64,000 nt of DNA from Candidatus Omnitrophota bacterium (GTDB lineage Bacteria > Omnitrophota > Gorgyraeia > 1-14-0-20-64-10): NCBI GenBank assembly GCA_016177405.1, contig JACOVG010000006.1, positions 10,064 through 74,063 on the forward strand, written 5' to 3'. A program made the translations under genes and the position numbers. This document shows, in pieces, positions 6,844 through 63,249 of this stretch. The notes beneath the pieces are model-generated. The model saw only the letters and a program-made list of their open reading frames with translations. It did not search any database and was not told the origin of the DNA. The first letter of the stretch is position 1; each line of letters begins with the position of its first letter.

Positions 6844-7840
6844 GGGACAATTCCTTTGCCGAAGCCAGCGCCCTGGCCCTCCACATCAGCCGCATGGTTT
6901 CCCGCACTGCGGTGAGGCCCACCCCCTCCGGGTCTCCCTGGGGCGTCTTTCCCGCGAGGCAGGCGTCGATCCGGTCGAGGGCATGCGCCAAAGGCCTCTG
7001 AAGCGCCTGAAAGGGAGAGCCCTCCGCGGGGACCAAGATCCGTTCTCCCCAATCGTTGACGGCCGTCTCCCAGACGGCGATGGCCTGGCCAAAGTTGAGA
7101 AGCTGGACCCGCCCCCTCTGGAAACGGAGATCGCACTCGAACATCTGGTAGAGCCGCTCATCGAACGTCCTGAAGCTCACCGGCGCGCCTTCCCACCGAA
7201 GCGTGAGGTGCAGGTTGTCATCCCCCGCGCGCCCGCCGGGGGCCGTGGAAACGTTCGCGATCTTGGGTTCTCCCGGAAGGAGCAGCCGGAGGGTGTGCAC
7301 CAGGTGGACACCGCTGTTCATCCATCCCCCGTAGGTGGTGGAGATCCCTTCCACCAAAGGGCCCAAAACACCGGATCGGATCCGGCGAGCCAGTTTCTGA
7401 TAGGCCGGATCAAAACGCCGGGGATGATGGACCAGGATACGGGTTCGGCCGGTCCGTTCCAGGTCCAAGAGCCGATCCAGATCCGCCTCGTCAAGACAAA
7501 CCGGCTTCTCCATAAAGAGAACCCGCGGAGGATTCTGGGCCAGGAGAATCTGCTTGGCCTGGTCGAAATGGAGCTCGCTGGGGCTGCACAGGCTGATGAC
7601 GTCCACCCGCTCCTTCTCTAGAAAGGCGTTCAGCGAAGCGAACCGGCCCGGGACACGCCATCGTTTGCCCAGGGCCTCCCGCCGGCTGGCCTTGGGATCC
7701 ACCACCGCCGTCAGCTTGAAGGCCGGGTGCTGGTGGTAAGCCTGGGCGTGTGTCTGGACCGGCCCGCGGCTGCGGGGCTCGTCCAGAAGGCCCGCAATTC
7801 TTCCGCAGCCCACCAGGGCTGCCGTCCAATCAGGCTTCAT
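6827..7840 (-). CDS. Gfo/Idh/MocA-family NAD(P)-dependent oxidoreductase (WbpB-like sugar dehydrogenase candidate)
   Basis: ORF 6827..8140 trimmed to ATG at 7840 (MKPDWTAALVGCGRIAGL Rossmann motif); the 100-aa N-terminal extension in the ORF track overlaps the upstream gene and is not credible. Confidence 0.75.
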   Translation of the reverse strand: MKPDWTAALVGCGRIAGLLDEPRSRGPVQTHAQAYHQHPAFKLTAVVDPKASRREALGKRWRVPGRFASLNAFLEKERVDVISLCSPSELHFDQAKQILLAQNPPRVLFMEKPVCLDEADLDRLLDLERTGRTRILVHHPRRFDPAYQKLARRIRSGVLGPLVEGISTTYGGWMNSGVHLVHTLRLLLPGEPKIANVSTAPGGRAGDDNLHLTLRWEGAPVSFRTFDERLYQMFECDLRFQRGRVQLLNFGQAIAVWETAVNDWGERILVPAEGSPFQALQRPLAHALDRIDACLAGKTPQGDPEGVGLTAVRETMRLMWRARALASAKELSHAARS

Positions 7841-8585
7841 TTCGCAGCGCTTTCCACCGCCTGGGAACGGTTTGGTTTCGACGGGCCAGCTCCGGGTGGT
7901 CGAGCAAGAAGTCGATGATTTCACCCAACCCGAATCCGGGCCGCCTCGGATAAAAATGCTCGTACACGGCGGAGACCACCTCAAAATCTTCCTCGGTGTC
8001 CACCTCCAGGTGAAACTTCGGCTGCCGGTGCCAGGGCGGAGCTTCCAGGTTGCACAGCCTGAACCGGTCCGGGTATTGTGTGATGTTCCAGCCGGCATGG
8101 GACCGGCGATCCGCGTCGGCCACAAGCCGTTCGGTCTCAAGCAAGACCCTGGCCGGATAAACGAAGACCTCCATCCCCGGCGGATAGGTGGTCGTCAGGC
8201 CATTGGTCACGTAGTCGTAGCGGTCCAGATTCTTCAGGGCGAATCCCGTCACCGCGTCCACCAAGAGAGGGTCGGGCATGGGGTTGTCCCCCATGAACTC
8301 GACATGGAGATCCACCGAGAAGGCCTTGAGCGCTCCGGCCACCCGGCCCAAAACATCCTCCTCGCTGCCCCGGAAACAGGGAATGCTCAAGCGCGAGGCA
8401 AGCTGCGCCAGGGGATCGTCCCCGGCCTCGGTGGAAGTGGCCAAGATCACCTCGTCAATCAGCCGGCTGCGCCGGATCCTCTCGATCTGGAGCTCCAGCA
8501 TCGGCATCCCAAGGATGGGGCGCAGGACCTTGCCCGGCAGCCTGGAAGATCCCATCCGGGCCTGGACGGTGGCCGAGATCCTCAC
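7830..8585 (-). CDS. Cytidylyltransferase, SpsF/acylneuraminate cytidylyltransferase-like (GT-A nucleotidyltransferase fold)
   Basis: N-term ISATVQARMGSSRLPGKVLRPILGMPML is the classic CMP-sugar synthetase (SpsF/NeuA/KdsB) phosphate-binding signature; 251 aa. Confidence 0.65.
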   Translation of the reverse strand: MRISATVQARMGSSRLPGKVLRPILGMPMLELQIERIRRSRLIDEVILATSTEAGDDPLAQLASRLSIPCFRGSEEDVLGRVAGALKAFSVDLHVEFMGDNPMPDPLLVDAVTGFALKNLDRYDYVTNGLTTTYPPGMEVFVYPARVLLETERLVADADRRSHAGWNITQYPDRFRLCNLEAPPWHRQPKFHLEVDTEEDFEVVSAVYEHFYPRRPGFGLGEIIDFLLDHPELARRNQTVPRRWKALRNEA

Positions 8586-9745
8586 CTGGGCGCTCCTTCA
8601 GGTGCCGGAAGAAGATTGAGCAGCTCCTGGACAATGCGCGAAGCGGCTCCCTGCGCCTGCCTGAAGAGCTTGCCAGCTTGAGCCGGCGCGGGCCCCGGCG
8701 GGCCCCACCAGGCGCCCAGATGCCGGACCAGCGCTTTCCGTTCCGTGACCGTCGGGACCAGCCCAAGATCCGTTCCAATGAAGGGACCCGCCTGGCATCC
8801 CCCGGGTTGAAAGCTGACCGACCGTTTGCCCGCCAGGGCTGCCTCCAGCAAAAGCAGAGAGGTCATCCCCAGGACGCCGTCGCTGGCAAGGATGGACGGC
8901 CACGGAGGCTGATTGGCCATGGGCCAGAGCCGCCCCTGCGACCTCCAGCGCCGGGCCAGCGGTCCGCACGGAAACTCCCCCTGCGCCTGGGGGTGCAGCT
9001 TCACGATCAGACGGGCCTTCAACCCTTGCGCGGATTCGACTTCGTCAAGAGCGGACAAGGTCTCCTCCAACACCTGGTCTTCGGTGTAACCCCTGAAATA
9101 AGGGGCTCCAGGCGCAAAATCGGAGTTGAACGATTCCGCCGCGAAGAGAAAGAAACGTTCGTTGGCGGATGCCCCGGCCCTTGAGAGCCACCCTTGCTTG
9201 AGAGAGCGCGCGTCAGCGAGGAGGGACGGCTCCGCCAGTCCTTGAACGAGCGTTTCCAGGTAGGGGTGCCCGGTAACGACCAAAATCTCCTCCGGCAGCC
9301 CTTCCCGAATGGCCTGGGCCTTGGCCGTCTCATCAGGGAGAGCGATCCGCGCGGGGTAAACTGGAACTCCCGAGGGCGCGGCGGCCCAACGCTCCTTGTA
9401 ATAGCACCAATGATCCACGACAGCCAAAGCGGGAAGGCGGGTATGCCGCAGCAGGATCTTGTCGATGCTCTGACCCCAGGCGGTTCCCAAAAGAAGGAGA
9501 TCCGGACGAATGTCCGCGACCTCTCTCATGATGGCCTCGGTCAAGCCGTTCGGCGGCTCCTGCGCCTGGGGGACCACCCTATGCGTGAGCGCGGCCCTTT
9601 CAAACAGGCCCACCGCCTGGGCGCAGGCCAAAGAATGAACCTGGGCGGACGCTTCTTCCTGAAGCGCCCGGATCACGGGGATGAGAACGTTCGCTCCGCC
9701 GGCGTCCTGGGCCGCCGCTAAAACCACCGGACGTCTGTCAGGCAT
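8582..9745 (-). CDS. Hypothetical protein, possibly GT-B-like (PseG/TagF-like) sugar-processing enzyme
   Basis: 387 aa; N-terminal Gly-rich VVLAAAQDAGGANVLIPV and C-terminal RLIVKLHPQAQGE (K-x-HP reminiscent of TagF-family); assignment tentative. Confidence 0.4.
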   Translation of the reverse strand: MPDRRPVVLAAAQDAGGANVLIPVIRALQEEASAQVHSLACAQAVGLFERAALTHRVVPQAQEPPNGLTEAIMREVADIRPDLLLLGTAWGQSIDKILLRHTRLPALAVVDHWCYYKERWAAAPSGVPVYPARIALPDETAKAQAIREGLPEEILVVTGHPYLETLVQGLAEPSLLADARSLKQGWLSRAGASANERFFLFAAESFNSDFAPGAPYFRGYTEDQVLEETLSALDEVESAQGLKARLIVKLHPQAQGEFPCGPLARRWRSQGRLWPMANQPPWPSILASDGVLGMTSLLLLEAALAGKRSVSFQPGGCQAGPFIGTDLGLVPTVTERKALVRHLGAWWGPPGPAPAQAGKLFRQAQGAASRIVQELLNLLPAPEGAPR

Positions 9746-10784
9746 CGAAGGGTTTGAGCAAGGTTCGCATCCGGTGGAGGTAGGTGTGCTCCTGAAGAAC
9801 CCTGCGGCGCCCTTCCTGGGCCATTCGCCGAGCCTCCTCTGGATGACGGAGATAATAGGACACCTTTTCCCTGGCCTCCCCCGGCGAGCGGTAGGTGGCC
9901 ACCTCCCGTTCCGGCGTCAACAGCTCTTCCATGCCGGGGACATGATCGGTCAGTTCGAAGGTGCCACAGCCAAGCAGCTCGAAGGCTCGCGCGTTCAACC
10001 CGGCTTGCCGGGCCTGCTCATCGTGAACGTTCAGGCCCATGGAGGCGGCGTTGTAAATCCGCGCCGTGGTCCGGTCCGGGACATAGCGCTCCGGCGAAAC
10101 CACTCGGCGCCAGGCGCCGTTTAAGGACGCCCGGACCTGGGGGCTTCCCCACCCTCGGCCCCACACCTTCAGATCAAATTCCGCCAGCGCCTGAACCATC
10201 CGGTCGCGGCCGGGCGCGTGCCAGGCAACAAAGGCAACCTCCGAGTGAAAGCGCCTCCTTTGAAGGGGGCTTAAGGCGAGGGGCCTATAGACCGTCTCAT
10301 CGCAGGCGCAGGGCAAAAACGAAACGGTCCGGGCGCCTGCCTTTTTAAGATCCGGCAGGTAGGAGCGGTCAAAAAGGTAGAAATGGTCAATGAGCGGCAG
10401 GCGGTCCTCAATGGGAAAGCGAAAGGGATTGTCCAGCCACCAGGTGATCAAGGGCGCTCGGGTGGAGGCCTTGAGTGCTCGAAGCAGCGAAGCGGAAAGG
10501 GTTTCTCCCCTTAAGATCAAGATCAGCTCCGGCTGGGCTTGACGGGCCAATGCCAGCAGGCGCTGATCCCGCTTCGCCAGCCAGCGTTCCCGGAAGATGT
10601 CGACCAGGGGGACGCCCCCGGGAAAACGAGAAAGAAGTTGCCTGCCCTGCCTTAAGGTGAGACGGTCCACCCAAGGGCTTGAGCTCAAGAAGGGAATGAC
10701 TTGATGGTTAAGCCGCTTAAGGGCGCAGGCGGTATACCACACCCAAGGGACCAGGAAAGTGGGAGAGATCAACAAGATCTTCAT
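9738..10784 (-). CDS. CgeB-family (DUF3880 + GT1-like) putative glycosyltransferase
   Basis: ATG at 10784 (MKILLISPTFLVPWVWY) forming ATGA overlap with upstream stop; C-terminal GT1-like EQARQAGLNARAFELLGCGTFELTDH...ATYRSPGEAREKVSYYLRHPEEARRMAQEGRRRVLQEHTY resembles CgeB spore-maturation/GT family. Confidence 0.55.
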   Translation of the reverse strand: MKILLISPTFLVPWVWYTACALKRLNHQVIPFLSSSPWVDRLTLRQGRQLLSRFPGGVPLVDIFRERWLAKRDQRLLALARQAQPELILILRGETLSASLLRALKASTRAPLITWWLDNPFRFPIEDRLPLIDHFYLFDRSYLPDLKKAGARTVSFLPCACDETVYRPLALSPLQRRRFHSEVAFVAWHAPGRDRMVQALAEFDLKVWGRGWGSPQVRASLNGAWRRVVSPERYVPDRTTARIYNAASMGLNVHDEQARQAGLNARAFELLGCGTFELTDHVPGMEELLTPEREVATYRSPGEAREKVSYYLRHPEEARRMAQEGRRRVLQEHTYLHRMRTLLKPFDA

Positions 10785-11689
10785 CGAGTCACGGAAGCGG
10801 AACAAGCCCTTCTCTCCCTCATGGAGGTCAAACCCTCCTCAACACCCATTGGTTTCACCTCCAGCTCTTCGGACATGCGGCGAGTCACAAAGGAGGTGTC
10901 CTTAGGACGCGGGGCAAGACCATGAAGGAGAGCGCCGGCGACCGGCTTGACAAGGTTCTCGGCAAACCCGAAGATCCGGCAAACGGCCAGCGCGAATTCC
11001 GTCAGTGGAAGCCTCTGCGGTCCCGCGACATGAAGGGCGCCGGTCATACCCCTTTCCAAGGCTGTCCAGATGGCCCGGGAGCAATCCTCCGCGCGAAGGG
11101 GCATGCTCATGACCTCTCGAGCGACGGGAATCTTCTTGCCCTCTTCCAGCCTCTCAAGCCACCGGGTGACGACGTTGCCGCGGCCCCCCGGCCAGGGCCA
11201 GCCGTACATGAGGATGGGACGAACGATAAGGTGCCGGCATCCGCTGGCGCGCACGGCATCCTCGGCCTTCACCTTGAGCTGGCCGTAGCGGTTGATTGGC
11301 CTCCTGGCCGACTCCTCGGAGTAAGGGGGGTTGTCCCCATCAAAAATCGCGTTGGAAGAAACCGCCGCGAGGAAGATCTTGAGCCGCTGGCACAGCTCCG
11401 CCAGAACTTGCGTCCCCCCGACGTTGATCCGTGAAACCGATTCCGGGTCGCGCTCCGCTTGGTCCACCGACCCCACGCCTGCGGTGTGGATGACGGCGTC
11501 CGGCCGGACTTGCGTCAGCAGCCTGAAGAGGTCCAATTCGTCGAGAAGATCCATCGCGAGGAAGCGGTCCTTCCACGCGGCCGGAGGCGGCAAGTGGTGA
11601 TGGGTGGCCAAAACCTCACACCCCTGGGGAGCAGTTTCCAGGAGGGTTTTTCCCAAGAGTCCCGTGCCGCCGGTGATAAGGACGCGCAT
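10781..11689 (-). CDS. dTDP-4-dehydrorhamnose reductase (RmlD)-like NAD(P)H-dependent sugar reductase
   Basis: [16 protein letters not shown] Rossmann; YGQLK active-site motif (Y-x3-K); ATG 11689 preceded by AGGAGG SD 6 nt upstream. Confidence 0.7.
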   Translation of the reverse strand: MRVLITGGTGLLGKTLLETAPQGCEVLATHHHLPPPAAWKDRFLAMDLLDELDLFRLLTQVRPDAVIHTAGVGSVDQAERDPESVSRINVGGTQVLAELCQRLKIFLAAVSSNAIFDGDNPPYSEESARRPINRYGQLKVKAEDAVRASGCRHLIVRPILMYGWPWPGGRGNVVTRWLERLEEGKKIPVAREVMSMPLRAEDCSRAIWTALERGMTGALHVAGPQRLPLTEFALAVCRIFGFAENLVKPVAGALLHGLAPRPKDTSFVTRRMSEELEVKPMGVEEGLTSMRERRACSASVTR

Positions 11690-11691
11690 CG

Positions 11692-12606
11692 TCAACCTCC
11701 TGAGGCGACCTCCGAGGGTTTCTTATCCGCCTGAATCTCCTGAAGACAATCCAGCAAGCCGGTGCCCAGATCCACGTAGTGATGGCTGATAAGCTTCCTG
11801 GCCATCTGGGGACGGAAGGCATACGGCGTGACGCGGTAGTGCGGTGTCCGTCCCGACTCCGACTGCAGGGGGTCCACCGGCTGGTACTCGATCTCGATGG
11901 GTAAGCCCAAGATCTCGCGGATCATCTCCATGAGGTCGCGCACCCGGGTCGGATGGTGGCCGGTCAGGATGACGCGCTCGTTCTTGAACCCCGGATCCAG
12001 GATCTGGACGCTGGAGCGGGCGACATCGGAAACGTGGATGTATTCCCTCAACTCGTCACCGCTTCCATGAACAACGATCCGGCGCTTTTCAAGCGCCTGG
12101 GTGAGGTAATGGCGCACGCCGTTGCCGCCGTCGGCCCCGCGGCCGTAGATGGAACCGTACCGGAGGATCGTGTAGTCCAATCCAAACCAGCGCTGGTACT
12201 CCTCAACGTACGACTCGCAGGCCTGTTTGCTGGCCCGGTAAAAACCGCCTGCTTGCCCGGAGACATAGATGCTGCTGGCGAAGACATACCGGTGGACCTT
12301 GGCGAGCCGCGCCTCCTCCAGGAGGATGGCGTTGCCAAGGACGTTGACGCGCGCGGTGTCCACCGGACGACTCTGCGCCTCCTCCAGGTTGGCCAGGCCG
12401 GCGAAATGATACACCACCTCTTGGCCGGTCATGGCGCGGCGCACGGCCTCCTCATCCAGGATGTCCCCCTGGACGAACCGCTGCCGGCCGTCCGTGTGGG
12501 CCAAGCGGCTGCGGTCGAAAACCGTCACCTCGTGACCCGCTTGCGCCAGCGCGTCCACGACATAGGAACCTACGAATCCCGAACCTCCAAAGACAATGGC
12601 CTTCAC
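11692..12606 (-). CDS. NAD-dependent epimerase/dehydratase (extended SDR, UDP-glucose 4-epimerase-like)
   Basis: Probable GTG start at 12606 (KAIVFGGSGFVGSYVV) with strong SD AAGGAGGAG 7 nt upstream; YRASK catalytic motif; ORF-track N-terminal extension is GC-rich read-through. Confidence 0.75.
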   Translation of the reverse strand: MKAIVFGGSGFVGSYVVDALAQAGHEVTVFDRSRLAHTDGRQRFVQGDILDEEAVRRAMTGQEVVYHFAGLANLEEAQSRPVDTARVNVLGNAILLEEARLAKVHRYVFASSIYVSGQAGGFYRASKQACESYVEEYQRWFGLDYTILRYGSIYGRGADGGNGVRHYLTQALEKRRIVVHGSGDELREYIHVSDVARSSVQILDPGFKNERVILTGHHPTRVRDLMEMIREILGLPIEIEYQPVDPLQSESGRTPHYRVTPYAFRPQMARKLISHHYVDLGTGLLDCLQEIQADKKPSEVASGG

Positions 12607-12625
12607 CTCAAGACTCCTCCTTTTT

Positions 12626-13384
12626 CTAATCGCCGCCGGCAACCGTGATGGTTTCGCCGGTGATAAAATCGCCGGCCTCCGAGGCCAGATACAGCGCCAT
12701 CCGGGCCATGTCCAGGGGTTGTCCCGCCCGTTGGAGGGGGATCTTCCGAATCCTCTCCCGGCGGTCCCTCCGGCCCATCTTCTGATGAAAGGGGGTCTCG
12801 ATGAATCCTCCACGGATGGCGTTGACCCGGATGCCGTGCGGGGCGCCCCACCGGGCCAGCCCCCGGGTGGCCGCCTCCAGGGCCGCCTTGGCCGCCCCGT
12901 AATGAAGGCTGACGGGAGACCCCCCGTATTTGGCGGAGATCGAACTGACGTTGATGATCCGCCCGGAACGCTGCCTCCGCATGCGCCAAAGGGCCTCCTG
13001 GGCCAGGAAGAAGGGGCCCTTGGCGTTGAGGGCGAAGGTCCGGTCCCATCCCTTTTCGCTCAAGCGTTCGATCGGTTTCGGCTCCAGGACGCCCCCCGCG
13101 TTGTTGATGAGGACATCGATCCGGCCAAAGGCGCGCACAAAGGCCTTCACCAGACGACGGATTTGGGACACCTGGCTTAAGTCCGCCTTGAAGCAAGCGG
13201 CCGTTTTGCCCTTCGCGAGGAGCGCTCTCCGGAGCGCCTGGGCCTTCGCGGCATTCCGGTGGTAGTGAATGCCGACCTGGGCGCCGCAGTCGGCGAAAAG
13301 GCAGACCATGGCGCTGCCGATTCCCCCGGTGGCCCCCGTGATCAAAACCCGTTTGCCGCGAAGGGATTCAAACATCGGCGCCAT
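12626..13384 (-). CDS. SDR-family oxidoreductase (FabG-like)
   Basis: KRVLITGATGGIGSAM (TGxxxGxG), NNAG, S...YGAAK (Y-x3-K) motifs; 252 aa. Confidence 0.8.
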   Translation of the reverse strand: MAPMFESLRGKRVLITGATGGIGSAMVCLFADCGAQVGIHYHRNAAKAQALRRALLAKGKTAACFKADLSQVSQIRRLVKAFVRAFGRIDVLINNAGGVLEPKPIERLSEKGWDRTFALNAKGPFFLAQEALWRMRRQRSGRIINVSSISAKYGGSPVSLHYGAAKAALEAATRGLARWGAPHGIRVNAIRGGFIETPFHQKMGRRDRRERIRKIPLQRAGQPLDMARMALYLASEAGDFITGETITVAGGD

Positions 13385-14108
13385 GGGCCTTCAGCCAGAA
13401 TTCCACTTGCGGGATCTGCCACTGGTAATCCACGTCAAGCCCTCCCCACTGCTTGAGGGGGTGAATCTTCCTGCCCATCCACCTTTGAGGCAGCAAGCCG
13501 TCCTCGAGGTTGTCCAGACACCTGGGACGGACCACCGAAACCCCCATGTCGGCGAAGTAGACCTCCCCTTGCGAGTCCCGGTCGCAGTTAAGGCTTTGTG
13601 GGTTGCCTATCGCTTCAAAAGGGACAAAGGGTTGAAGGAACCCTTCGGGCCCCAGCCGCCGCGCCCGCAGGGGACTCCACATGTTGTAGGCCGAAACGGA
13701 GACGGCCGAATCGATTGAGGGGTCCTCCCTCAAGACTCGGATTCCCTCTTCGATCAGGCGGCTGGTGACCGTGGGGGCGTTGCAAAAAAGAAGCACCAGA
13801 AGCTCGGGCTTGTCCCCGCGGGAGGCGAGCCGGCCGCAAATCTCCCGGTAACCGTGGCGGAAGACCTCCTCTCCGAGCGCGGAATCGGCCGCCAGTTCCG
13901 GGGGCCGGACGATCGGCTCCGCCCCGCGGCCGGCGGCGATCTTCAGGATCTTCTCCGAGTCGCTCGATACGAAAAGCCGGTCCACCCCCTTGGCGTTGGA
14001 AGCGGCCTCCAGCGGGTACGCCATCAGCGGCTTTCCCAGAACCGGATACCAGTTCTTGCCCGGAAAACCCTTGCTCCCCTCCCGCCCGATCAAGAGCGCG
14101 GCGATCAT
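13368..14108 (-). CDS. Acylneuraminate (nonulosonic acid) cytidylyltransferase, NeuA family
   Basis: ATG at 14108 (MIAALLIGREGSKGFPGKNWYPVLGKPLMAYPLE) = CMP-NeuAc synthetase N-terminal signature; ATGA overlap with upstream stop. Confidence 0.75.
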   Translation of the reverse strand: MIAALLIGREGSKGFPGKNWYPVLGKPLMAYPLEAASNAKGVDRLFVSSDSEKILKIAAGRGAEPIVRPPELAADSALGEEVFRHGYREICGRLASRGDKPELLVLLFCNAPTVTSRLIEEGIRVLREDPSIDSAVSVSAYNMWSPLRARRLGPEGFLQPFVPFEAIGNPQSLNCDRDSQGEVYFADMGVSVVRPRCLDNLEDGLLPQRWMGRKIHPLKQWGGLDVDYQWQIPQVEFWLKAHGADV

Positions 14109-14953
14109 CCCGCCGCCTCCACGGGCTTCACCCCCGCAAGCATCCATCCCCGGTCGTAGGCCACGCGGATCTGCCCCAGACCGGCCTGCCCCATCAGCCG
14201 GATGGCGCCCTCGCGGCTGAAGCGATGCTCCAGCGGGGCCGAAAAACGGTCGTAAAGATCACCCACCAAGCTTAAGGGTCCTTGGCCGTGCCGGTAAGGC
14301 AGCCGCTTGACCCAGGAAGAGAGGACCCGAACGTCTTTGGCGAGGCGGTACGGCAAGGTGAAGGTAAGCCACGCCAGGGGAGAGCCCAGGACGCAAAGCC
14401 CGTAGAGCAGGCCCGGCGGGAGCCTGCGCGTGATCCCTCTGGTGAGCCGGGTCAGCTTCAATCCCAGACGCCAGCTTACGCTCCGGTCGCTCATGTCCTC
14501 GTAAAGATAAATGGCGAGGGCGGCACCCGGCTTGGCCAGGTGAACCAGCTCCTGAAGCCCCCCCAAGGGAGAAGCCATGTGGTGGAGCACCCCATAGGAG
14601 TAGATGAAATCAAAACAACCCGGCCCGAAGGGAAGCCGCTGGATGTCGGCTTGAAGGATCCGGGCATTGGAAAGGGATCGCGTCCTGGCGAAGCTGGCCT
14701 GGGACCCGCCCGGGCTTAGCTCCACTCCCACCAGTTGAGCCTGGGGGTGGCGCACGGCCTGGAGATAAAGGTCGATTCCGTTTCCGCAGCCGGCGTCCAG
14801 AACCAAACCCTTCAAAGGGGCGAGGTGAAGGCCTTCCCGCATCCGGTCAAAGTGGTAAGCCGGGGGGAGAGTTCCCTGACGCCTTTGGGAAGCCGACCAG
14901 AGATACCCGTAGCGGCTGGAGGTCTCCGATTCCACGCTCGCAAGACTAGGCAT
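14105..14953 (-). CDS. Class I SAM-dependent methyltransferase
   Basis: ATG at 14953; motif I LVLDAGCGNGIDL, acidic motif II, VLHHMASP (methyltransf_11/12-like). Confidence 0.7.
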   Translation of the reverse strand: MPSLASVESETSSRYGYLWSASQRRQGTLPPAYHFDRMREGLHLAPLKGLVLDAGCGNGIDLYLQAVRHPQAQLVGVELSPGGSQASFARTRSLSNARILQADIQRLPFGPGCFDFIYSYGVLHHMASPLGGLQELVHLAKPGAALAIYLYEDMSDRSVSWRLGLKLTRLTRGITRRLPPGLLYGLCVLGSPLAWLTFTLPYRLAKDVRVLSSWVKRLPYRHGQGPLSLVGDLYDRFSAPLEHRFSREGAIRLMGQAGLGQIRVAYDRGWMLAGVKPVEAAG

Positions 14954-15959
14954 GAACCTTCCCAGCCCCCAGCTTTTCCAGCTCCATGGCCCGGTAGGAG
15001 CAGCGGTCGCAGGCCTGAAGCTTGTGGGCCTGCCCCTCGGCATGAAGCCGCCGGTACCGAGAGGCCTCTTCCGAAAGCCACATCGACCGTATCGATTGGG
15101 CCCCGGCCCTTCCGAGGGCCAAGAGAGAGAAGTCTGAAACGCCGTGCATCAGGCACGGCAGGGCGGTGCCGTCCCACAGGATGGTCATCCTCTGCCACAG
15201 GAAGGGACAGGCCCAGTCCGCGACGAGCCCCCGGTGATCGTCCTCCGGCCCCTCCCGGCGGTGGTCGAGATAGGCGATTTCATCGGCCGTGGCTTCCCAA
15301 AAATTCACGTACTCGGAAAACCGCTCCCGGAGCTCTGCGAGCATCACGGACTGCACCCTGATCTGCGGGATTCCCAGGCCCCGCTCATCCCGGAGGCGCC
15401 GCAGGGTCTGGACATTCGCCACCACCCGCTCAAATTGGGCCCCCACCCGATAAGCCTCGTAGGATTCCTTGGAGGTCCCCTCGAAAGAGATGGAAATCCG
15501 ATCCAGTCCGGCATCGATCAGCCGGTGGATCAGGGCCCCCGTCAAGAGGGTCGCGTTGGTGTTGAAATAAACGTCCAGAATCCCCTTCTGCTTGGCGTAC
15601 GCCACCATCTCCGGAAGTTTCGGGTGCAGGGTGGGCTCCCCCCGGAAGCTAAGCTTGATGGAAAAAAGCCCTTCCGCCGCACCTTCATCGATGATCCGGG
15701 TAAAGAGCTCCCACTTCAGATATCCCGGAACCTCCGGGCCCCAATTCTTCATGGTGGTGGCGCAGAAGGGGCAGCGCAGGTTGCACACGCCGGTTGATTC
15801 GATGTCCAGGTGAATCGGGAACTCCCCCACGGTGAAGCGCTCCGGAAACTGGGCCCAGCGCCTGCGGTACTCCTGAAAGCGCGGATCTTTCAGCCGCGCG
15901 TCAAAAACGCTGGATTTCCCCACCGTGTGGAAATTGGGGTTGGCTCGGGCTCCGCTCAT
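14946..15959 (-). CDS. Radical SAM enzyme with C-terminal SPASM domain
   Basis: CNLRCPFC (CxxxCxxC) radical SAM cluster; C-terminal Cys-rich CPFLWQRMTILWDGTALPC...CDRCSY consistent with SPASM auxiliary cluster domain. Confidence 0.8.
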   Translation of the reverse strand: MSGARANPNFHTVGKSSVFDARLKDPRFQEYRRRWAQFPERFTVGEFPIHLDIESTGVCNLRCPFCATTMKNWGPEVPGYLKWELFTRIIDEGAAEGLFSIKLSFRGEPTLHPKLPEMVAYAKQKGILDVYFNTNATLLTGALIHRLIDAGLDRISISFEGTSKESYEAYRVGAQFERVVANVQTLRRLRDERGLGIPQIRVQSVMLAELRERFSEYVNFWEATADEIAYLDHRREGPEDDHRGLVADWACPFLWQRMTILWDGTALPCLMHGVSDFSLLALGRAGAQSIRSMWLSEEASRYRRLHAEGQAHKLQACDRCSYRAMELEKLGAGKVHA

Positions 15960-16540
15960 CTCTTTTTGATCACCCGCGCCTGAAACTCGATCTCGTCAAA
16001 CCCGCCCACCCAGTAGCACCAGATCCGCTGGGTCCACCGAACGTTGAGGTTCGCCAGGCCGTCGATCGCGCGCGAGATCGCTTTGCGCAGCCAGGTGGTT
16101 TGCGCCCTCGGGCGCATCCAGTGCAGCCGCACCCTCTCCACCTGGAAATGGCAGCGGCCATAGCGCTCCGAATGGCCGGGGTCGAAATGGTCGAAAAGAC
16201 CCACCCCCACGGCCCGCTTGTGACCCGGGTGGGTCCAGTTGCAGGAGTAGTGGGGCACGCGTATCTCCAACCGGGCCCCGTGCGCGCAAATCCGGTACAG
16301 CTCTTGGATCACCCCGATCGTGTCTTCCAAGTGTTCCAGGCAATGATCCATCACCACCTCCCGGACCGATCCCTCCTCGAAAGGCCACGGAAAAAGATCC
16401 AGGTCGTGGACGACGTCCGGCGTGGGACCATTTCCGTTGTTGTCCACGTTGAGGAAACCGGCGATCCGGCGGCCGCCTGAACCGATGTTCAGCCTCAAGA
16501 GAACCCTTTCAGGGGTTTGGACGAAACCCGCGTCAGACAT
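15956..16540 (-). CDS. Class I SAM-dependent methyltransferase (Methyltransf_11-like)
   Basis: RVLLRLNIGSGG motif I; ATG at 16540 lies 5 nt after upstream stop (ORF-track GTG 16564 would overlap upstream gene). Confidence 0.65.
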   Translation of the reverse strand: MSDAGFVQTPERVLLRLNIGSGGRRIAGFLNVDNNGNGPTPDVVHDLDLFPWPFEEGSVREVVMDHCLEHLEDTIGVIQELYRICAHGARLEIRVPHYSCNWTHPGHKRAVGVGLFDHFDPGHSERYGRCHFQVERVRLHWMRPRAQTTWLRKAISRAIDGLANLNVRWTQRIWCYWVGGFDEIEFQARVIKKR

Positions 16541-18092
16541 CGATTGGGTCGAGGACTCCAACACCCAAGTACTCCTCTCTGAATTTCACCTGCAGATTCT
16601 TGTACTGCGCGTCTCCGGCCTCACTCATCTGTTCCGCGAGGCGGATCTGCGGATGGACGGGTTCTGGCATCGTGACGTAAAAGCTGAAGGTGCGCTCCAA
16701 GCCCAGGATCTCCTCCCGGGAGAGCTGGGGCATGTTCAGCGTGCTTGCGTCAGGGTTATCCAATGAGCAGATGGTGCCGGGGTCGAGGTACCCTTCCCGG
16801 ATGGCCAGCTCTCTTAACGGCGTTCCGTGGAAGGGGGCGAAGATGAAGGCGCCGGAGCATTCCACCCCCTTGGGCAGCTGGCGGTTGAATTCGATCGTGT
16901 CGAAGATCAGATCCCGCGTCTCCAGGGGCATCCCGATGATGCTGTTTCCGTTGGCGGCGTATTTCCGGCCGGCCACCGCCCGGAAGGCCTCCAGCATTCG
17001 CTCGTTGGAGAGTTTCCTTTTCAGAACCTTCTCCCGGTACTCGGGGTTCCCATGCTCGATGCCCATGCTCATCCTAAGGCAATTCATCCGTTCGAGCCAC
17101 CCGGCTCTTTCTTCGGTGATGGTCTCGCAGCGGGTGTTCATCCAGAAGGGGATCTTAAAATCCAGGTACATGTTGGCCAGCTCCAGAAACTCCCCGTCCC
17201 CCATGGCGAGAAAGGTGTCCACCACGAAGTAGATGAGCTCCGGCTGATACTTTTCCTTGAGGAACTTAAGCTCCGCGTGCACGCGGTCCATCCGCTTCTT
17301 CCGGTAGAACCGCCCGCCCTTGTCGTTGGCGTAGGCCAAGTTGTTGGAGGGGGAGTTGCAATAGGCGCAGGTGTAGGGGCAGCCCCTCTGGGTTTCCATG
17401 CCGACCGTGCGCCAGATCTTGCCCATCATGGGCCGGTAAATGCTCTGGGGATCGAACAGATCGAAATCCGGGTAGGGAAGGCTGTTCAGATCCAGCGTCT
17501 GGCGCATCGGATTCTGGTAAATCTGGCCATCCTGTTTCACCCAGAGGTTAGGGGTGTCCTTGACCGGCAGCCCGCGGCAGAGTCTAAGGCACAAGTCCAG
17601 CAGGGCCTCCTCCCCTTCCCCGCGGCAGACGTAGTCGACCGCCTCTTCCCGGACGATCTTGTCCGGCGCGTAGGTGGCGAAGACCCCGCCGAAGAGAACG
17701 GGCGGACGCCCCTTCAGCGACTGGACCAGCCGGAGGCCGACGGTGTAGGTGTTCTCCACCACCGAGACCGCGATGAGATTCGGCTGGAATTCATCCACCT
17801 TTTTCTGAAAGTCCAAGAACATATCGGTCTCCACGGGGCGGATGCCCCTCTCCTCCCAGCGGAAGGGGCGCAGGGCCGAGTGGAAGTACGGGTAGTTGGC
17901 GCCGAAGGGATTCTTGTAAAAGGTGCAGTCAAAGAGGTCCACGGTGAACCCTTCCTGCTTGAGGACCGCGGACAACAGTCCCAGACCGGTGGGCATTAGG
18001 GCGCGCATCTCGATGTTCGGGTAAAGGAACAAAACCCGGAAATCCTTGGGGTTTCTTCCGTTGCCCATCGGTGTGGTGTTGAGTGAAATCAT
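16533..18092 (-). CDS. Cobalamin (B12)-binding domain radical SAM enzyme (class B), probable C-/unactivated-position methyltransferase
   Basis: N-terminal B12-binding-like VLFLYPNIEMRALMPTGLGLLSAVLKQEGFTVDLFD...; radical SAM CPYTCAYC; ATG 18092 with GGGAGAAGG SD. Confidence 0.8.
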   Translation of the reverse strand: MISLNTTPMGNGRNPKDFRVLFLYPNIEMRALMPTGLGLLSAVLKQEGFTVDLFDCTFYKNPFGANYPYFHSALRPFRWEERGIRPVETDMFLDFQKKVDEFQPNLIAVSVVENTYTVGLRLVQSLKGRPPVLFGGVFATYAPDKIVREEAVDYVCRGEGEEALLDLCLRLCRGLPVKDTPNLWVKQDGQIYQNPMRQTLDLNSLPYPDFDLFDPQSIYRPMMGKIWRTVGMETQRGCPYTCAYCNSPSNNLAYANDKGGRFYRKKRMDRVHAELKFLKEKYQPELIYFVVDTFLAMGDGEFLELANMYLDFKIPFWMNTRCETITEERAGWLERMNCLRMSMGIEHGNPEYREKVLKRKLSNERMLEAFRAVAGRKYAANGNSIIGMPLETRDLIFDTIEFNRQLPKGVECSGAFIFAPFHGTPLRELAIREGYLDPGTICSLDNPDASTLNMPQLSREEILGLERTFSFYVTMPEPVHPQIRLAEQMSEAGDAQYKNLQVKFREEYLGVGVLDPIDV

Positions 18093-18101
18093 CCTTCTCC
18101 C

Positions 18102-19934
18102 TTAGACGTGAACGACCTCTTGCGCCGCGGCCGCGGTTCTGGGGGAGCCTAAAACCGACTGAACCCTCTGTGGGTCATAAGGCGAAAAAACTTGGGTCAC
18201 CCAGGGCCGGCTTGAATCGCTCTTAGGACTCGAAAGGTTTCCGACCTCCTCCAGCACCACTTGACGCAGATTCGTGTCGGTCGCCATCGGAACCGAGTGG
18301 GGATAGACCCCGCCGACATCCAAGAGCTGCCCCGAGCGGTAATTCACAACCCGCTTTCCCATGGCGAGCGCTTGAAACCCAACGGAGCTCGCGGTAAAGA
18401 GGACGAGATCCGCCTCTTTCAGATCTCTCTTCAGGTCGGTGAAATCGGCCGGCAGAAGCCTCGCCGGAAAACGGATCTCGCTGGCCCGGATGGGGTGCAG
18501 CGGATGGTGGCGAATCCAAAATCGAAGGCCTTCTTCTTGCCCTCCCCCCGGAAAGTTCAGGCGCAGCGCTTCCAGCAGATGCGCCGCCATCGGTGGATCG
18601 ATGGGAAGAGCCACCAAAATGTTACCTCCTCTGGGCTGGCGGCCGTTCCCCTGGCAGGCGCCAAGGGCTTCATCCGAAGAAAGCTCCCGATACCGGATCG
18701 ACCCGGTCAACCGCAATTTCCCCGGCGGAATCCCTCCGGCCTGAAGGAGCCGGTGGCCGTAGGGGCCGGAGGTGAAGATGATGTCCGGCAGGGGCATGCG
18801 TTGGGCTTCCCCCTTTCCGAGAAAGTAGGGCAGGTAAAATTCCGAAAGGATGATCGCCTGATAGGCGGCCGTGCGGACCCCATGCGCCTGGGCCGCCAGA
18901 ACCAGCAGCTTCTCCCAAGGTTGATTCTCATACGAGTAGACGACCCACCGCCAGTTTCCCTTCTCCAACAGGCGGCTGGCCGTCTCATAAAAGAGCCGAA
19001 AGGCGCACAACGAAGCCCGCCCAACCTCCAGCCATTGCTCCCTGTGAATGAGCCAGGTGACCGGTCTGCCGCCAAGGGTCAAGGGCAGCGGGTCCCCAGG
19101 CCAGGTCATCGCCTTAAAGGAGCGCCAAATCGCTTGCCGGGTCGCCCAGAGGATGAGGGGTTGAAAATAATCCGAGCGCATGGCCAAGGGCCGTTCGTAC
19201 CCGCCGCAATCCGGCGACGAAAACCGAACCACGTCCCAGCCGGATTCCGCGAGCAGTTCCTCCATTCCGGGGAGGTGGTGGTCCTCCCATTGGCGGGGCC
19301 CCTTGAAGCTGCTGGGCTGCGGATAAGAGAAGAGGGCGATGGCCGGATCTCGTGGAACGAACCTCTCCCGGCTGGGCCACACCCGCCGTTGCCGGCGCCG
19401 ATCCGAGAGTGTTTTGATCAACCACCGAACCCGCTTGAGCAGGCCCGCCGCGACGACCCTCCCCTTGGCCGCCAACAGCGAGGATTCGCCCACGACCCGG
19501 ATCCGCGAATCGGCACCCCCCAGGTTCTCTTGAAGCTGTCGAAGCAGCCACGGATCCTCGACCACGATGAGGAGCGCTTCATGGCGCTTGATGGCTTGGG
19601 TCACCTCATCGTGCGCCAGATGGAGATAGCAGGCCAGCAGAAAAAGATCCGAGGCGATCCACATCTTCCAGGAGAGCCGGGTGGACCACCAGGTAATGGG
19701 ATCCTCCTGGCCCGCGCCCACCTGGGCGACCAGATCCAGAAAGGGCTGGCGCAGCGCCCGGGCTGTTTCGTGGAGCTTCTGGGCGCTGTCCCAGGGCGCC
19801 AATCCCAAAGCGGCTTGCGCCTGGGCCCTGAACCGGACGTTCTTGCCCAGGTAAAGCCATTGTTTAAAATCCGTTCGACCTCGAAGTGCCCGCCGAAGAT
19901 GGGCCGGAGAGGTTACGACGATGGGTTCAGACAC
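18102..19934 (-). CDS. Hypothetical protein (610 aa) conserved in glycan cluster context
   Basis: Long ORF, GTG start at 19934, co-directional and overlapping upstream stop; no catalytic motif recognised. Confidence 0.5.
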   Translation of the reverse strand: MSEPIVVTSPAHLRRALRGRTDFKQWLYLGKNVRFRAQAQAALGLAPWDSAQKLHETARALRQPFLDLVAQVGAGQEDPITWWSTRLSWKMWIASDLFLLACYLHLAHDEVTQAIKRHEALLIVVEDPWLLRQLQENLGGADSRIRVVGESSLLAAKGRVVAAGLLKRVRWLIKTLSDRRRQRRVWPSRERFVPRDPAIALFSYPQPSSFKGPRQWEDHHLPGMEELLAESGWDVVRFSSPDCGGYERPLAMRSDYFQPLILWATRQAIWRSFKAMTWPGDPLPLTLGGRPVTWLIHREQWLEVGRASLCAFRLFYETASRLLEKGNWRWVVYSYENQPWEKLLVLAAQAHGVRTAAYQAIILSEFYLPYFLGKGEAQRMPLPDIIFTSGPYGHRLLQAGGIPPGKLRLTGSIRYRELSSDEALGACQGNGRQPRGGNILVALPIDPPMAAHLLEALRLNFPGGGQEEGLRFWIRHHPLHPIRASEIRFPARLLPADFTDLKRDLKEADLVLFTASSVGFQALAMGKRVVNYRSGQLLDVGGVYPHSVPMATDTNLRQVVLEEVGNLSSPKSDSSRPWVTQVFSPYDPQRVQSVLGSPRTAAAAQEVVHV

Positions 19935-21313
19935 AAGGTCTTCTCTGCGGCAAGCTGCGGGGCTTTGGCTCCGGCAGGAAACCCCTGGGCCGCCAGCAGG
20001 TAACGTTGGATCTCCCGCTCAAACCGGCCCGCCAGCCGGCGGGCCTGAAGCGGAAACCAGCAGTTTCCGATGGGATCCCGTCGGATTTTGAACGTGTACG
20101 CCTCAAGGGCCTTGGCTTGGGCTAAGACCCAAGGCTCCCGCCACCTGGAGTCCTCCTCCGCGCTCGGCGGCTGTCCCAGATCCGCCAGGACCGTGTGGAC
20201 CAGTTGAGAAAGAGCAGAAACAGGCCTTGGGAAATGGCAGACGTCTCGGAGAATCGCTTGAGCCTCGGCAGAGTGCTCAAAAGGCTCTCCGGGCCCTTTG
20301 GGCTGAATCTGGTTTACAAAAGCGAACACCTCATCCCAAGTTTCAGGAACCTTCAGGTGATCGATGATGGGGTAATGGTTTTGCTGGAAGTGGTCTGTGT
20401 GCTCGGCCAGCCGAGGCCCCACCAACCCCGTGAGGTTCAAGGCCGGCTTGCCCGCAGCAACGGCCTCAAAGAAGGTGGTGGAGTTAAAGCCGGCCATCAG
20501 CTGAATTTGGTCCAACCACGACTCAAACGGGAGCTCTTCTCCGCCGGTATGCAGCGTGGGGCTGTATCGGTCCTCAAAATAACGCCAGCTGCGGCGGTCC
20601 TCCTGTTGGTGGGGGCGAAGCCAAACCCTCTGCCCGCGACGCCGACATTCGTCGAAGAAGGTCAGCAGAACGCGCAGGTAGGACGCCTCAATCCACAAGC
20701 GGTCTTCAAAGTATCTCGCTTTGGATTGAAAGCCCCAGTGGGTTCCCCGATGCAGGTCAATCTTCTTCAGCATGGACTCGGGGACGATGGAGTTGAACAG
20801 GGGGAAACTGCTGACCACCCCGATGGGAACCCGCTGCGCCCCCAGGGGTTTTCTGGCTTGAGCCGCCGCCAGAAAGAAATCCATGCGGGGGGCACCGGTC
20901 ACCGGAAGCTGTTCTTCGCGGAAGCGGCCGGTGGCCAGAAGCACCCGGCGGCTGTAGTCCCCCCACAGAAAAAAACGATGGATGCTCTGGATGTGCCTCT
21001 GCCAACAATCTGGATCCGAGCCCCCGCCATACTTCACCAGGAGAGGCCCCTCTTCAAAGACCGCTCCCTCGGTGGCCAGCATGTAGATCTTTGTTCTTCG
21101 CGTGATCTTGGGGTAGGTATCGTAGATGATGTTCATCGGAGTGGCGATCACGGCGGCCTCGCACGGCAGCGCGTTGAGGATGGGGTTCGTCGTCCGGCGC
21201 GTGGACAGCAGGGCGCGGGCCCCCGCTTTTTCAAAGAGCCTCGCCAGCGCGATGAGAACCGGACCGTCCCGGCGGGGGTCTTCCATGTGGATGAGAATCC
21301 GCGGGCGCCTCAT
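19913..21313 (-). CDS. Hypothetical protein (466 aa), possible surface-carbohydrate biosynthesis protein
   Basis: Long co-directional ORF; no motif recognised by eye. Confidence 0.5.
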   Translation of the reverse strand: MRRPRILIHMEDPRRDGPVLIALARLFEKAGARALLSTRRTTNPILNALPCEAAVIATPMNIIYDTYPKITRRTKIYMLATEGAVFEEGPLLVKYGGGSDPDCWQRHIQSIHRFFLWGDYSRRVLLATGRFREEQLPVTGAPRMDFFLAAAQARKPLGAQRVPIGVVSSFPLFNSIVPESMLKKIDLHRGTHWGFQSKARYFEDRLWIEASYLRVLLTFFDECRRRGQRVWLRPHQQEDRRSWRYFEDRYSPTLHTGGEELPFESWLDQIQLMAGFNSTTFFEAVAAGKPALNLTGLVGPRLAEHTDHFQQNHYPIIDHLKVPETWDEVFAFVNQIQPKGPGEPFEHSAEAQAILRDVCHFPRPVSALSQLVHTVLADLGQPPSAEEDSRWREPWVLAQAKALEAYTFKIRRDPIGNCWFPLQARRLAGRFEREIQRYLLAAQGFPAGAKAPQLAAEKTLCLNPSS

Positions 21314-22921: not shown

Positions 22922-23749
22922 TCAGCCAAGGACCGATTCCGTTTTTGGGAATCTGGAGCGGACAAAGTCCCGTATCTTGAGCTCGCCGGCCGTGGGAAGC
23001 TTCCTGGTTTCACCCAAAAGCTCCTCCACGCGGCGGATCTGTTCCACCATGGTCCGGAACTCCTCAGGGGTGGCGGAAAGAACGTGATCGGTCCCGGGAA
23101 GGGATTTGTCCAGGGTGAAGTGTTTTTCAATCACCCGCGCCCCCAGGGCGGCCGCCGCCACGGGAGCCACCACGCCCACCGTATGGTCCGAGTAGCCGAT
23201 CACCCGGTCCGGGAAGGCTTCCTGCAGCGCCGTGATGGAGCGCAGGTTGGCTTCGGAGTCGCCAAGAGGATACTGGGTGACACAGTGCAAAATGACGACC
23301 TCATCCACCTCGTCCAGCCACCCCAAGGCCTGGCCAATCTCCTCGAGGGTGGCCATCCCGGTTGAAAGATAGACGGTGTCGGCGTGCCGATTCACGTACG
23401 CGAGGAGTGGGCGGTTGAGCATCTCGCTGGAGGCGATCTTGATGGCGCGCAAACCCAGTTTCTCGCAAAGGAACCGGGCTCTCTCGACGGTGAAGGGGGA
23501 GCTCAAGAAGCCAACGCCCTGCTGGACGGCAAGACCCTTAAGCTCCCGATGGAGATCGTCGGAAAGCTCCACCCGGGTGAACCACTCCCGCTCCGGATCC
23601 TTCTCGGAGACGTCCCTTCCCCGATAAGACTGGAATTTCACCACATCGGCCCCTGCCTGGGCCGCCAAGACCACCATCCGGCGGGCCAGATCCCAGTCGC
23701 CGCCATGGTTCTCCCCGATCTCCGCGATGATGAGAGCCGGCTTAGACAT
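22922..23749 (-). CDS. NeuB-family nonulosonic acid (sialic/legionaminic/pseudaminic) synthase, short form without C-terminal SAF domain
   Basis: MSKPALIIAEIGENHGGDWDLARRMVVLAAQAGADVVKFQSY is the canonical NeuB/PseI/LegI N-terminus; only 275 aa, TIM-barrel domain only. Confidence 0.8.
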   Translation of the reverse strand: MSKPALIIAEIGENHGGDWDLARRMVVLAAQAGADVVKFQSYRGRDVSEKDPEREWFTRVELSDDLHRELKGLAVQQGVGFLSSPFTVERARFLCEKLGLRAIKIASSEMLNRPLLAYVNRHADTVYLSTGMATLEEIGQALGWLDEVDEVVILHCVTQYPLGDSEANLRSITALQEAFPDRVIGYSDHTVGVVAPVAAAALGARVIEKHFTLDKSLPGTDHVLSATPEEFRTMVEQIRRVEELLGETRKLPTAGELKIRDFVRSRFPKTESVLG

Positions 23750-61671: not shown

Positions 61672-61690
61672 AGGGACGGGCACCTTGGCA

Positions 61691-63211: not shown

Positions 63212-63249
63212 TTTTTTCGGCTCCCAGGTGATAACGTTCTTCCGGAAAC

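Follow-up and report, generated by a model that had tools for sequence, protein, structure and literature searches.

Introduction

The class B radical S-adenosylmethionine (SAM) methylases, among them Fom3, GenK, TsrM, TokK, CysS and MgmA, share a B12-binding Rossmann domain and a radical SAM core. Not all class B enzymes methylate, as AprD4, OxsB, BchE and HpnJ illustrate, and AprD4 is among the members of the class that do not use cobalamin. In radical SAM enzymes with a SPASM domain, the full motif, CX9-15GX4C ... CX2CX5CX3C ... C, ligates two 4Fe-4S clusters. BtrN, DesII and BlsE have carbohydrates or nucleotide-linked sugars as substrates (a TDP-sugar for DesII and cytosylglucuronate for BlsE) and SuiB modifies peptides; in the butirosin pathway, the BtrN step leads to an aminotransferase step. 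Nonulosonic, sialic-acid-like sugars shape the recognition of microbial surfaces by phages, predators and hosts. To our knowledge their biosynthesis, as described so far, relies on polar chemistry only, and we know of no neuraminic (Neu), legionaminic (Leg) or pseudaminic (Pse) acid pathway that uses radical SAM enzymes. Here we examine a triad of overlapping genes for a class B radical SAM enzyme, a small SAM methyltransferase and a second, BtrN-like radical SAM enzyme, in a stretch of a Candidatus Omnitrophota contig (JACOVG010000006.1) that we refer to, at its full length of 64 kb, as the window. The triad belongs to a recurring cassette that includes a NeuA-like cytidylyltransferase, and this cassette points to a mode of decoration of sialic-acid-like sugars that has not been described. 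Our preferred reading, put forward tentatively, is of a conserved module in which an ulosonic sugar (sialic-acid-like and probably nonulosonic) is modified and activated with CMP; the triad would be its variable end, responsible for tailoring, and the module lies within a surface-glycan island as long as the window itself.

Full-text searches of the literature returned no paper that connects radical SAM enzymes to nonulosonic acids. A search combining radical SAM with cytidylyltransferase and legionaminic acid found nothing, and one with pseudaminic acid and flagellin gave incidental mentions only. A match from the Burkholderia literature concerned HpnH and was set aside as irrelevant, and a paper on the SAR11 O-chain makes no mention of radical SAM enzymes or B12. 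In Campylobacter fetus, phase-variable radical SAM proteins of the MoaA/NifB/PqqE type lie among short-chain dehydrogenase/reductase (SDR), methyltransferase and formyltransferase genes (PMC6321876). Rare ulosonic acids with more carbons than usual, possibly 10, have been reported from Magnetospirillum and Methanococcus in a mass-spectrometric survey (PMC8157484). A C-methylated nonulosonic acid might resemble these higher-carbon acids.

Results

Organization of the locus

The whole window is one minus-strand array of glycan-biosynthesis genes with a GC content of about 0.62. Three open reading frames (ORFs) occupy exactly positions 14946-18092 of the minus strand and encode the class B radical SAM enzyme (519 aa), the small methyltransferase (202 aa) and the Twitch-type radical SAM enzyme (337 aa; Table 1). 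The 519-aa and 202-aa genes overlap by 32 nt, and the 202-aa and 337-aa genes by 4 nt. A second methyltransferase gene (282 aa; its longest ORF extends to 15043) starts 8 nt before the stop codon of the Twitch gene, and in the gene calls of identical contigs it is itself overlapped by 4 nt by the gene for the NeuA-like cytidylyltransferase. Because successive genes overlap, all five are translationally coupled: the B12-dependent radical SAM (B12-rSAM) gene, the small methyltransferase, the Twitch enzyme, the second methyltransferase and the cytidylyltransferase. The same gene calls are found in identical contigs, and identical proteins occur in Logan assemblies and in an NCBI metagenome-assembled genome (MAG) labelled Candidatus Omnitrophica bacterium. 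Homologues at 60-78% identity are present in many metagenomes and MAGs; the three ORFs are real genes and not chance ORFs. ORFs on the plus strand across the triad gave no Pfam match and were treated as shadow ORFs.

An earlier, sequence-only reading of this DNA had described a radical SAM triad at these coordinates, accompanied by two SAM methyltransferases and flanked by a NeuA-like gene and hypothetical sugar genes. The triad, its domain calls, both methyltransferases (the 202-aa and 282-aa genes) and the NeuA-like neighbour are as that reading had them; the two flanking genes upstream (610 and 466 aa) match surface-carbohydrate families, weakly.

The Twitch radical SAM enzyme

The 337-aa protein matches the Radical_SAM domain (PF04055, E 1.4e-20) and, above its cut-off, the SPASM domain (PF13186, E 2.3e-9, 37.8 bits versus 21.5). 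Among 24 homologues of 58-76% identity only seven cysteines are invariant: C59, C63 and C66 of the CX3CX2C motif, and C251, C269, C317 and C320 with the invariant spacing C251-X17-C269 ... C317-X2-C320. Neither the seven-cysteine motif of two-cluster SPASM domains nor a CX5CX3C element is present in the protein or these homologues. The C-terminal part keeps four invariant cysteines only, which ligate one auxiliary cluster, as in Twitch domains. The SPASM call made earlier thus stands as a Pfam domain and falls as regards two auxiliary clusters; judged by its cysteines and its closest folds, the protein is a one-cluster, BtrN-like Twitch enzyme. In a sequence search of solved structures the C-terminal domain matched BtrN only. 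The AlphaFold model (pLDDT 84.6) found BtrN (4m7t, E 1.9e-12, TMt 0.69) as its top Foldseek match, followed by SuiB, DesII and BlsE, with SkfB also among the structural neighbours.

SuiB and SkfB raise the question of whether the radical SAM enzymes could be maturases of ribosomally synthesized and post-translationally modified peptides (RiPPs) or of cofactors that lie in a glycan island by chance; the top NCBIfam scores of the Twitch enzyme, those of a tungsten-cofactor maturase, MoaA and PqqE, would fit that idea. We regard it as very improbable. These matches cover the radical SAM core only and lie far below cut-off: no NCBIfam equivalog was approached by the Twitch enzyme (best score, 94 bits versus 380), and the rSAM_desII model gave 36 bits versus 450. 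The two-cluster motif typical of peptide maturases is absent, and we saw no gene for a precursor peptide between the overlapping genes. The radical SAM genes share translational coupling with methyltransferases and a cytidylyltransferase, and their synteny with glycan genes extends across phyla, which agrees with the carbohydrate context proposed earlier over one of peptides or cofactors.

The NeuA-like cytidylyltransferase and its likely substrate

The protein encoded next to the 282-aa methyltransferase belongs to the CTP_transf_3 family (PF02348, 51.3 bits versus a cut-off of 22.6) and has an intact nucleotide-binding motif, R-x-G-S-K-G-x-P-x-K-N (LIGREGSKGFPGKN). Its nearest solved relatives are the CMP-NeuAc synthetases 9ftb and 6ifd, and its score on the PseF equivalog TIGR03584 (85.2 bits) falls short of the cut-off of 205.7. 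Genes of ulosonic type elsewhere in the island comprise NeuB, PseC/LegC-like aminotransferases, a formyltransferase, a PIG-L deacetylase, WbuX, AsnB and a NeuC-like 2-epimerase. A single NeuB gene was found in the window; its product is short, scores 276 bits on NeuB_NnaB (cut-off, 399.65) and gave no detectable SAF domain.

A NeuA-like CMP-sugar synthetase as the conserved partner makes an ulosonic or nonulosonic acid the likely substrate of the cassette, and not a C-methyl-branched hexose. The sequence-only reading had inferred C-methylated or otherwise radically tailored sugars; radical tailoring, C-methylation included, is still a reasonable expectation, while the branched hexose gives way to a likely ulosonic acid. 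Spelled out, such a hexose reading would have a GenK/GenD1-like class B enzyme and a SPASM enzyme acting on a nucleoside diphosphate (NDP)-hexose or a glycan-bound sugar, with a C-methyl-branched or epimerized hexose as product. The island is indeed rich in RmlD-like and GalE-like enzymes, nucleotidyltransferases and DegT aminotransferases, synteny with the triad extends to the GalE-like and RmlD-like genes, and DesII and BtrN, neighbours of the Twitch enzyme, use TDP-hexose and aminocyclitol substrates. We nevertheless think an NDP-hexose substrate unlikely: the conserved neighbour is a CMP-transferase and not an NDP-hexose nucleotidyltransferase, a canonical TylC3-type sugar C-methyltransferase is already present in the island, and comparisons with NCBIfam, the PDB and Foldseek, which did not include GenK, revealed no specific similarity to a characterized sugar-acting class B enzyme.

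The neighborhood in related loci

We compared about 160 loci, 80 genome loci around homologues of the B12-rSAM and 80 metagenome loci around homologues of the Twitch enzyme, and searched all of them with the proteins of the window, counting a Twitch homologue at an identity of at least 37%. (L numbers below are our labels for these loci.) A NeuA-like homologue lies within 2.5 kb of the Twitch gene in 18 of the 21 loci with adequate flanks, mostly with a gap of less than 120 nt, and across phyla the identity of this cytidylyltransferase is 48-71%. Of 11 Twitch-ascertained loci, only 5 have the B12-rSAM, and the closest relative of the Twitch enzyme (L088, 75% identity) is encoded in a locus without it. 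The pairing of Twitch enzyme and CMP-transferase is nearly constant and the distribution of the B12-rSAM and methyltransferases is patchy, and we therefore take the pair as the stable core of the cassette; the class B enzyme and the methyltransferases are frequent members and serve as interchangeable, optional decorations. The FabG-like SDR and the GalE-like enzyme are frequent partners of the Twitch cassette. In Omnitrophota and in two further lineages, Pfam annotation of the surroundings also shows genes for a 2-hydroxyacid dehydrogenase, a haloacid dehalogenase (HAD) phosphatase and a distant homologue, about 600 aa long, of the 610-aa protein of the window.

The nearest genome loci come from Planctomycetia MAGs (about 73% identity). 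The cassette as a whole occurs in dozens of loci in at least six phyla, with examples in Planctomycetota, Omnitrophota, Nitrospirota, Elusimicrobiota, Alphaproteobacteria and Methanoregula, and the related islands L168 and L169 hold three or four class B radical SAM genes each. Pararhodospirillum oryzae NBRC 107573 (L011, contig NZ_BJZO01000064.1) is a candidate carrier that is in culture. The description of the gene set as atypical for lipopolysaccharide or capsule loci consequently holds for textbook organisms only, since the cassette recurs so widely. In one locus (L087) the B12-rSAM is fused to a family 2 glycosyltransferase (GT2) domain.

A pyridoxal phosphate (PLP)-dependent aminotransferase of class I/II (PF00155) is encoded in about 30 related loci, including those of the nearest relatives of the Twitch enzyme. 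It lies directly upstream of the Twitch gene in L088 (8940-10004), upstream of the B12-rSAM in L008 (~5492-6505), and between B12-rSAM and Twitch genes in L006 (11826-12788) and L040 (~11607-12632), where a methyltransferase gene intervenes before the Twitch gene. Its position upstream of the Twitch gene in the nearest relatives suggests the logic of BtrN plus an aminotransferase. In a Magnetovibrionaceae MAG (L170, 13479-15019), an HpcH/HpaI aldolase gene is found directly upstream of a CTP_transf_3 gene, near a B12-rSAM and a SPASM radical SAM gene; this aldolase is a possible second, NeuB-independent route to an activated 2-keto-3-deoxy (ulosonic) acid.

The class B radical SAM enzyme and the methyltransferases

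The B12-binding domain proposed for the 519-aa protein was borne out by Pfam: PF02310 (E 1.3e-13, 51.3 bits versus a cut-off of 32.1) matches, as does PF04055 (E 1.8e-16). In 28 diverse members of the family, with a mean column identity of 59%, the cysteines of the CX3CX2C motif (C238/C242/C245) are invariant, and an SxL-like motif (S110-x-V) and G135-G136 are conserved, with S110 and both glycines invariant. The family is large (2148 database matches at E <=1e-10 among the candidates scored). The AlphaFold model (pLDDT 87.6) has TsrM (E 2.9e-22), MgmA, OxsB, AprD4, CysS and TokK as its best Foldseek matches, with TM scores of 0.57-0.71 and identities of 14-19% to solved class B enzymes. No named class B family of NCBIfam was reached among the models scored (HpnJ, the PhpK/Sden_1168 P-methylases, HpnR, BchE, BzaD, TsrM, AprD4, KedN5, MgmA and RiPP C-methylases); the best score was for HpnJ (84.1 bits versus 577.6), and all others were at most 82 bits against cut-offs of 251-750. 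Sequence and fold place the protein in class B at the general level, with no closer assignment; Fom3, GenK and GenD1 were not among the enzymes compared. We consider it a putative C-methylase and an optional addition to the cassette.

The best PDB sequence match of the family profile is AprD4 (E 7e-13), to which the model also has a TMt of 0.70, and the adjacent SDR genes mirror the logic of AprD4 with AprD3. The enzyme might accordingly be no methylase at all, and instead an AprD4-like radical dehydratase that deoxygenates a sugar together with a neighbouring SDR, or a catalyst of a rearrangement. This seems to us quite improbable, since the score on the NCBIfam AprD4 model (54 bits; cut-off, 500) comes after those for HpnJ and the P-methylases, the top structural matches, TsrM and MgmA, are methylases, and the protein family has kept the SxL-like and GG motifs typical of domains that bind cobalamin.

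The 202-aa protein has sub-threshold Pfam matches only, to Methyltransf_23 (22.7 bits versus 27) and Methyltransf_11. Homologues that share 35-47% identity with it have a PF08241 or PF13489 domain and are annotated as class I SAM methyltransferases, and G28 and G30 (GxG), D41 and H74-x-L-E-H78 are invariant in the family. A GxG motif binds SAM, and an acidic residue after strand 2 binds its ribose. The gene is therefore assigned, on these motifs and homologues, as a class I SAM methyltransferase. Among the 80 genome loci it was found only in the two closest Planctomycetia MAG loci (L008 and L040). A 202-aa protein in L169 was considered as a counterpart and rejected: its position is alike, and it is not homologous to the window gene.

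Flanking genes and the wider island

Table 1. Positions and assignments of the genes of the cassette and its flanks (window coordinates).
Coordinates	Strand	Feature	Basis
9738-10805	-	CgeB-like glycosyltransferase (Glyco_trans_1_2)	Pfam E 4.9e-37; syntenic in L008, L042, L088
10781-11695	-	RmlD-like reductase	RmlD_sub_bind E 2e-49; rmlD equivalog not reached (165 vs 224 bits)
11692-12813	-	GalE-like extended SDR (NAD-dependent epimerase/dehydratase), frequent cassette member	Pfam Epimerase E 4e-42
12626-13384	-	FabG-like classical SDR oxidoreductase, frequent cassette member	adh_short_C2 E 5e-56; co-occurrence
13368-14147	-	NeuA-like (CTP_transf_3) cytidylyltransferase	PF02348; probable start 14108 (246 aa)
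14105-14953	-	Class I SAM methyltransferase (Methyltransf_11), 282 aa from overlapping ATG	Pfam; gene call of identical contig; junction sequence
14946-15959	-	Radical SAM enzyme with Twitch-type C-terminus (half-SPASM, one auxiliary 4Fe-4S), 337 aa, core of cassette	PF04055, PF13186
15956-16564	-	Small divergent class I SAM methyltransferase, 202 aa	Sub-threshold Pfam; domains of homologues
16533-18092	-	Class B radical SAM enzyme, N-terminal B12-binding Rossmann domain and radical SAM core, 519 aa	PF02310, PF04055
18102-19934	-	610-aa protein	No Pfam match; weak TIGR04326, E 1.2e-12, below cut-off
19913-21313	-	466-aa protein	Weak TIGR04396, BFO_1060_trans; sub-threshold polysialyltransferase E 0.016
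22922-23749	-	NeuB-family nonulosonic acid synthase, 275 aa, short	Pfam NeuB E 1.2e-72

The GalE-like protein has UDP-glucose 4-epimerases as its best PDB relatives and homologues in 24 of the 80 B12-rSAM-centred loci (median identity, 46%). Homologues of the 610-aa protein occur in 10 of these 80 loci, repeatedly beside the B12-rSAM, with distant relatives of about 600 aa in L168, L169 and L087; the protein is a putative glycan, perhaps ulosonic acid, transferase. The 466-aa protein is putatively a surface-carbohydrate or sialyltransferase-like enzyme.

Several further genes of the window relate to sugar activation and modification. There are three distinct CTP_transf_3 genes (7830-8585, 13368-14147 and 47810-49000, all minus), of which one is KdsB-like and one NeuA-like; the third, a 396-aa form, adjoins a 2-hydroxyacid dehydrogenase gene (46863-47813). 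Three such genes with one NeuB suggest that several acids are CMP-activated in this island. The TylC3-type NDP-sugar C-methyltransferase (Methyltransf_13 and Methyltransf_14; 36630-37859, minus) means that a canonical SAM-dependent route to C-methyl-branched sugars is present, independent of the radical SAM enzymes. A second class B radical SAM gene (61691-63334, minus; 547 aa, 25% identical to the first) adjoins genes for a HAD hydrolase (63250-63891) and a NeuC-like UDP-GlcNAc 2-epimerase (60547-61713). A WbuX-family N-acetyl sugar amidotransferase (4299-5576, minus; 340 bits versus 203) implies acetimidoyl (acetamidino) substituents on sugars and is adjoined by an amidase (2872-4302) and a GNAT protein (2334-3041). 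PMT_2 (ArnT/PMT-like) membrane glycosyltransferase domains are encoded at 37846-39081 and 43261-45513 (minus), one of them fused to GT2 (750 aa), and suggest periplasmic transfer from lipid-linked sugars. An ATP-binding cassette (ABC) exporter (29038-30882) and a tetratricopeptide repeat (TPR) protein are also encoded in the window.

Discussion

From the domain identities, operon structure, conserved neighborhood and fold relationships described above we infer the substrate, the order of steps and the types of reaction. The NeuA-like enzyme would activate an ulosonic acid with CMP. The BtrN-like Twitch enzyme would use the 5'-deoxyadenosyl radical to abstract a carbinol hydrogen, giving a keto intermediate or an epimer. 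A keto intermediate might then be reduced by the adjacent SDRs, for a net epimerization, or, in relatives, be aminated by the aminotransferase. The class B enzyme may methylate, with methylcobalamin as the donor, an unactivated carbon in either the sugar or its N-acyl group, and the two class I methyltransferases may add O- or N-methyl groups. The class I/II aminotransferase of the relatives was not found in the window; its absence looks like a lineage-specific loss and may switch the product from an amino to a hydroxy sugar or an epimer.

A number of observations, that absence among them, weigh against our preferred reading. Neither radical SAM family has a characterized member and no equivalog model was reached by either protein, and the best PDB match of the class B family, as noted, does not methylate. 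NeuB lies about 5 kb from the triad in the window and is absent within 10 kb in many related loci. A small substituent other than a sugar could just as well be the product of the 2-hydroxyacid dehydrogenase, HAD phosphatase and class I/II aminotransferase that recur in these loci. The B12-rSAM orthogroup, moreover, is not confined to this context: in the band of 48-59% identity, only 1 of 28 loci has a Twitch partner. A SAR11 orthologue (about 52% identity) is well conserved and often a lone gene (many loci, L014-L038), and in L086, a single amplified genome of the Pelagibacteraceae, the gene lies beside purine-biosynthesis and DUF6580 genes, with no glycan genes detected nearby. Homologues in Streptomyces (about 50% identity; L004/L024, L028, L029 and L033) are encoded in PepM/Ppd phosphonate clusters with a Fom1-like PepM-nucleotidyltransferase fusion, an aminotransferase and a TagD-like cytidylyltransferase. 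Among these Streptomyces loci and L015 (Aestuariivirgaceae), homologues at this identity are also found in clusters with a CDP-alcohol phosphatidyltransferase. These clusters possibly encode a pathway, perhaps uncharacterized, to a methylated phosphonate or phosphonolipid.

Fom3, a class B radical SAM enzyme, methylates a cytidylylated substrate, CMP-2-hydroxyethylphosphonate (PMC8158854). The association of the B12-rSAM with cytidylyltransferases of three different folds suggests that its substrate, as for Fom3, may be cytidylylated. A conceivable, though in our view doubtful, role along these lines would be for the radical SAM enzymes to make or alter a small substituent other than a carbohydrate: an N-acyl chain, for example, a unit resembling glycerate or serinol, or a different small molecule activated by a cytidylyl group. 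The substituent would subsequently be attached to the glycan. The Streptomyces clusters, with their Fom1-like fusion and TagD-like cytidylyltransferase, the recurrence in the cassette of the dehydrogenase, the phosphatase and a HisC-like aminotransferase, and the documented precedent of Fom3 all speak for such a role. On the other side, the cytidylyltransferase of the cassette has the NeuA/KdsB fold with CMP-NeuAc synthetases as nearest solved structures, and the folds nearest to the Twitch enzyme include the sugar enzymes BtrN, DesII and BlsE. A tblastn search for PepM and Ppd found neither in the 64 kb, and we have accordingly set aside a Fom3-like, phosphonate reading of the window itself.

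If the preferred reading of a module for CMP-activated ulosonic sugars is correct, C-H functionalization, whether as C-methylation or as anaerobic oxidation and epimerization, would join the repertoire of nonulosonic sugar chemistry, two large unannotated radical SAM families (hundreds to thousands of sequences apiece in the databases) would gain a function, and mass-spectrometric surveys of environmental ulosonic acids would gain a genetic handle. It is also possible, although we hold this broader proposal with low confidence, that the pair of Twitch and NeuA-like enzymes, with the class B enzyme as an option, represents an undescribed radical SAM branch of ulosonic or nonulosonic acid biosynthesis with backbone-modified products, for instance C-methylated and effectively ten-carbon acids, and could account for the rare higher-carbon ulosonic acids of Magnetospirillum and Methanococcus. 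Such a branch would be widespread in uncultured Planctomycetota, Omnitrophota, Nitrospirota and Elusimicrobiota, in some Alphaproteobacteria and in methanogens. If the radical SAM enzymes act instead on a side group or a hexose, the locus would be an ordinary, albeit elaborate, site of glycan diversification.

Comparison with known systems

Among the solved class B methylases, TsrM, MgmA, CysS and TokK have a fold similar to that of the window enzyme (TM about 0.6-0.7); the identity to such enzymes is 14-19% and no named NCBIfam family applies; methylation is putative here. The next-best structural and sequence neighbours of the Twitch enzyme, DesII and BlsE, both use nucleotide-linked sugars; they differ from it in sequence (16-19% identity), in their accessory domains and in the lack of any equivalog score.

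The closest described relative of the Twitch enzyme is BtrN, the 2-deoxy-scyllo-inosamine dehydrogenase of butirosin biosynthesis. Both proteins combine a radical SAM core with a single C-terminal cluster that is, by its conserved cysteines, fully Cys-ligated, and the aminotransferase that adjoins the Twitch gene in close relatives echoes the passage from BtrN to an aminotransferase step. The two are 17% identical, and the window protein has a conserved 45-residue N-terminal extension. BtrN belongs to an aminoglycoside cluster, whereas the Twitch enzyme lies in a surface-glycan context with a CMP-transferase, and its function is a prediction.

The canonical Neu, Leg and Pse pathways (NeuB/LegI/PseI with NeuA/LegF/PseF) differ in that the cytidylyltransferase of the window scores below the PseF cut-off; NeuB, PseC/LegC-like aminotransferases and a NeuA-like gene are found in the island as well. 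Finally, the class B enzyme of the window is tied genomically to a cytidylyltransferase, as is Fom3.

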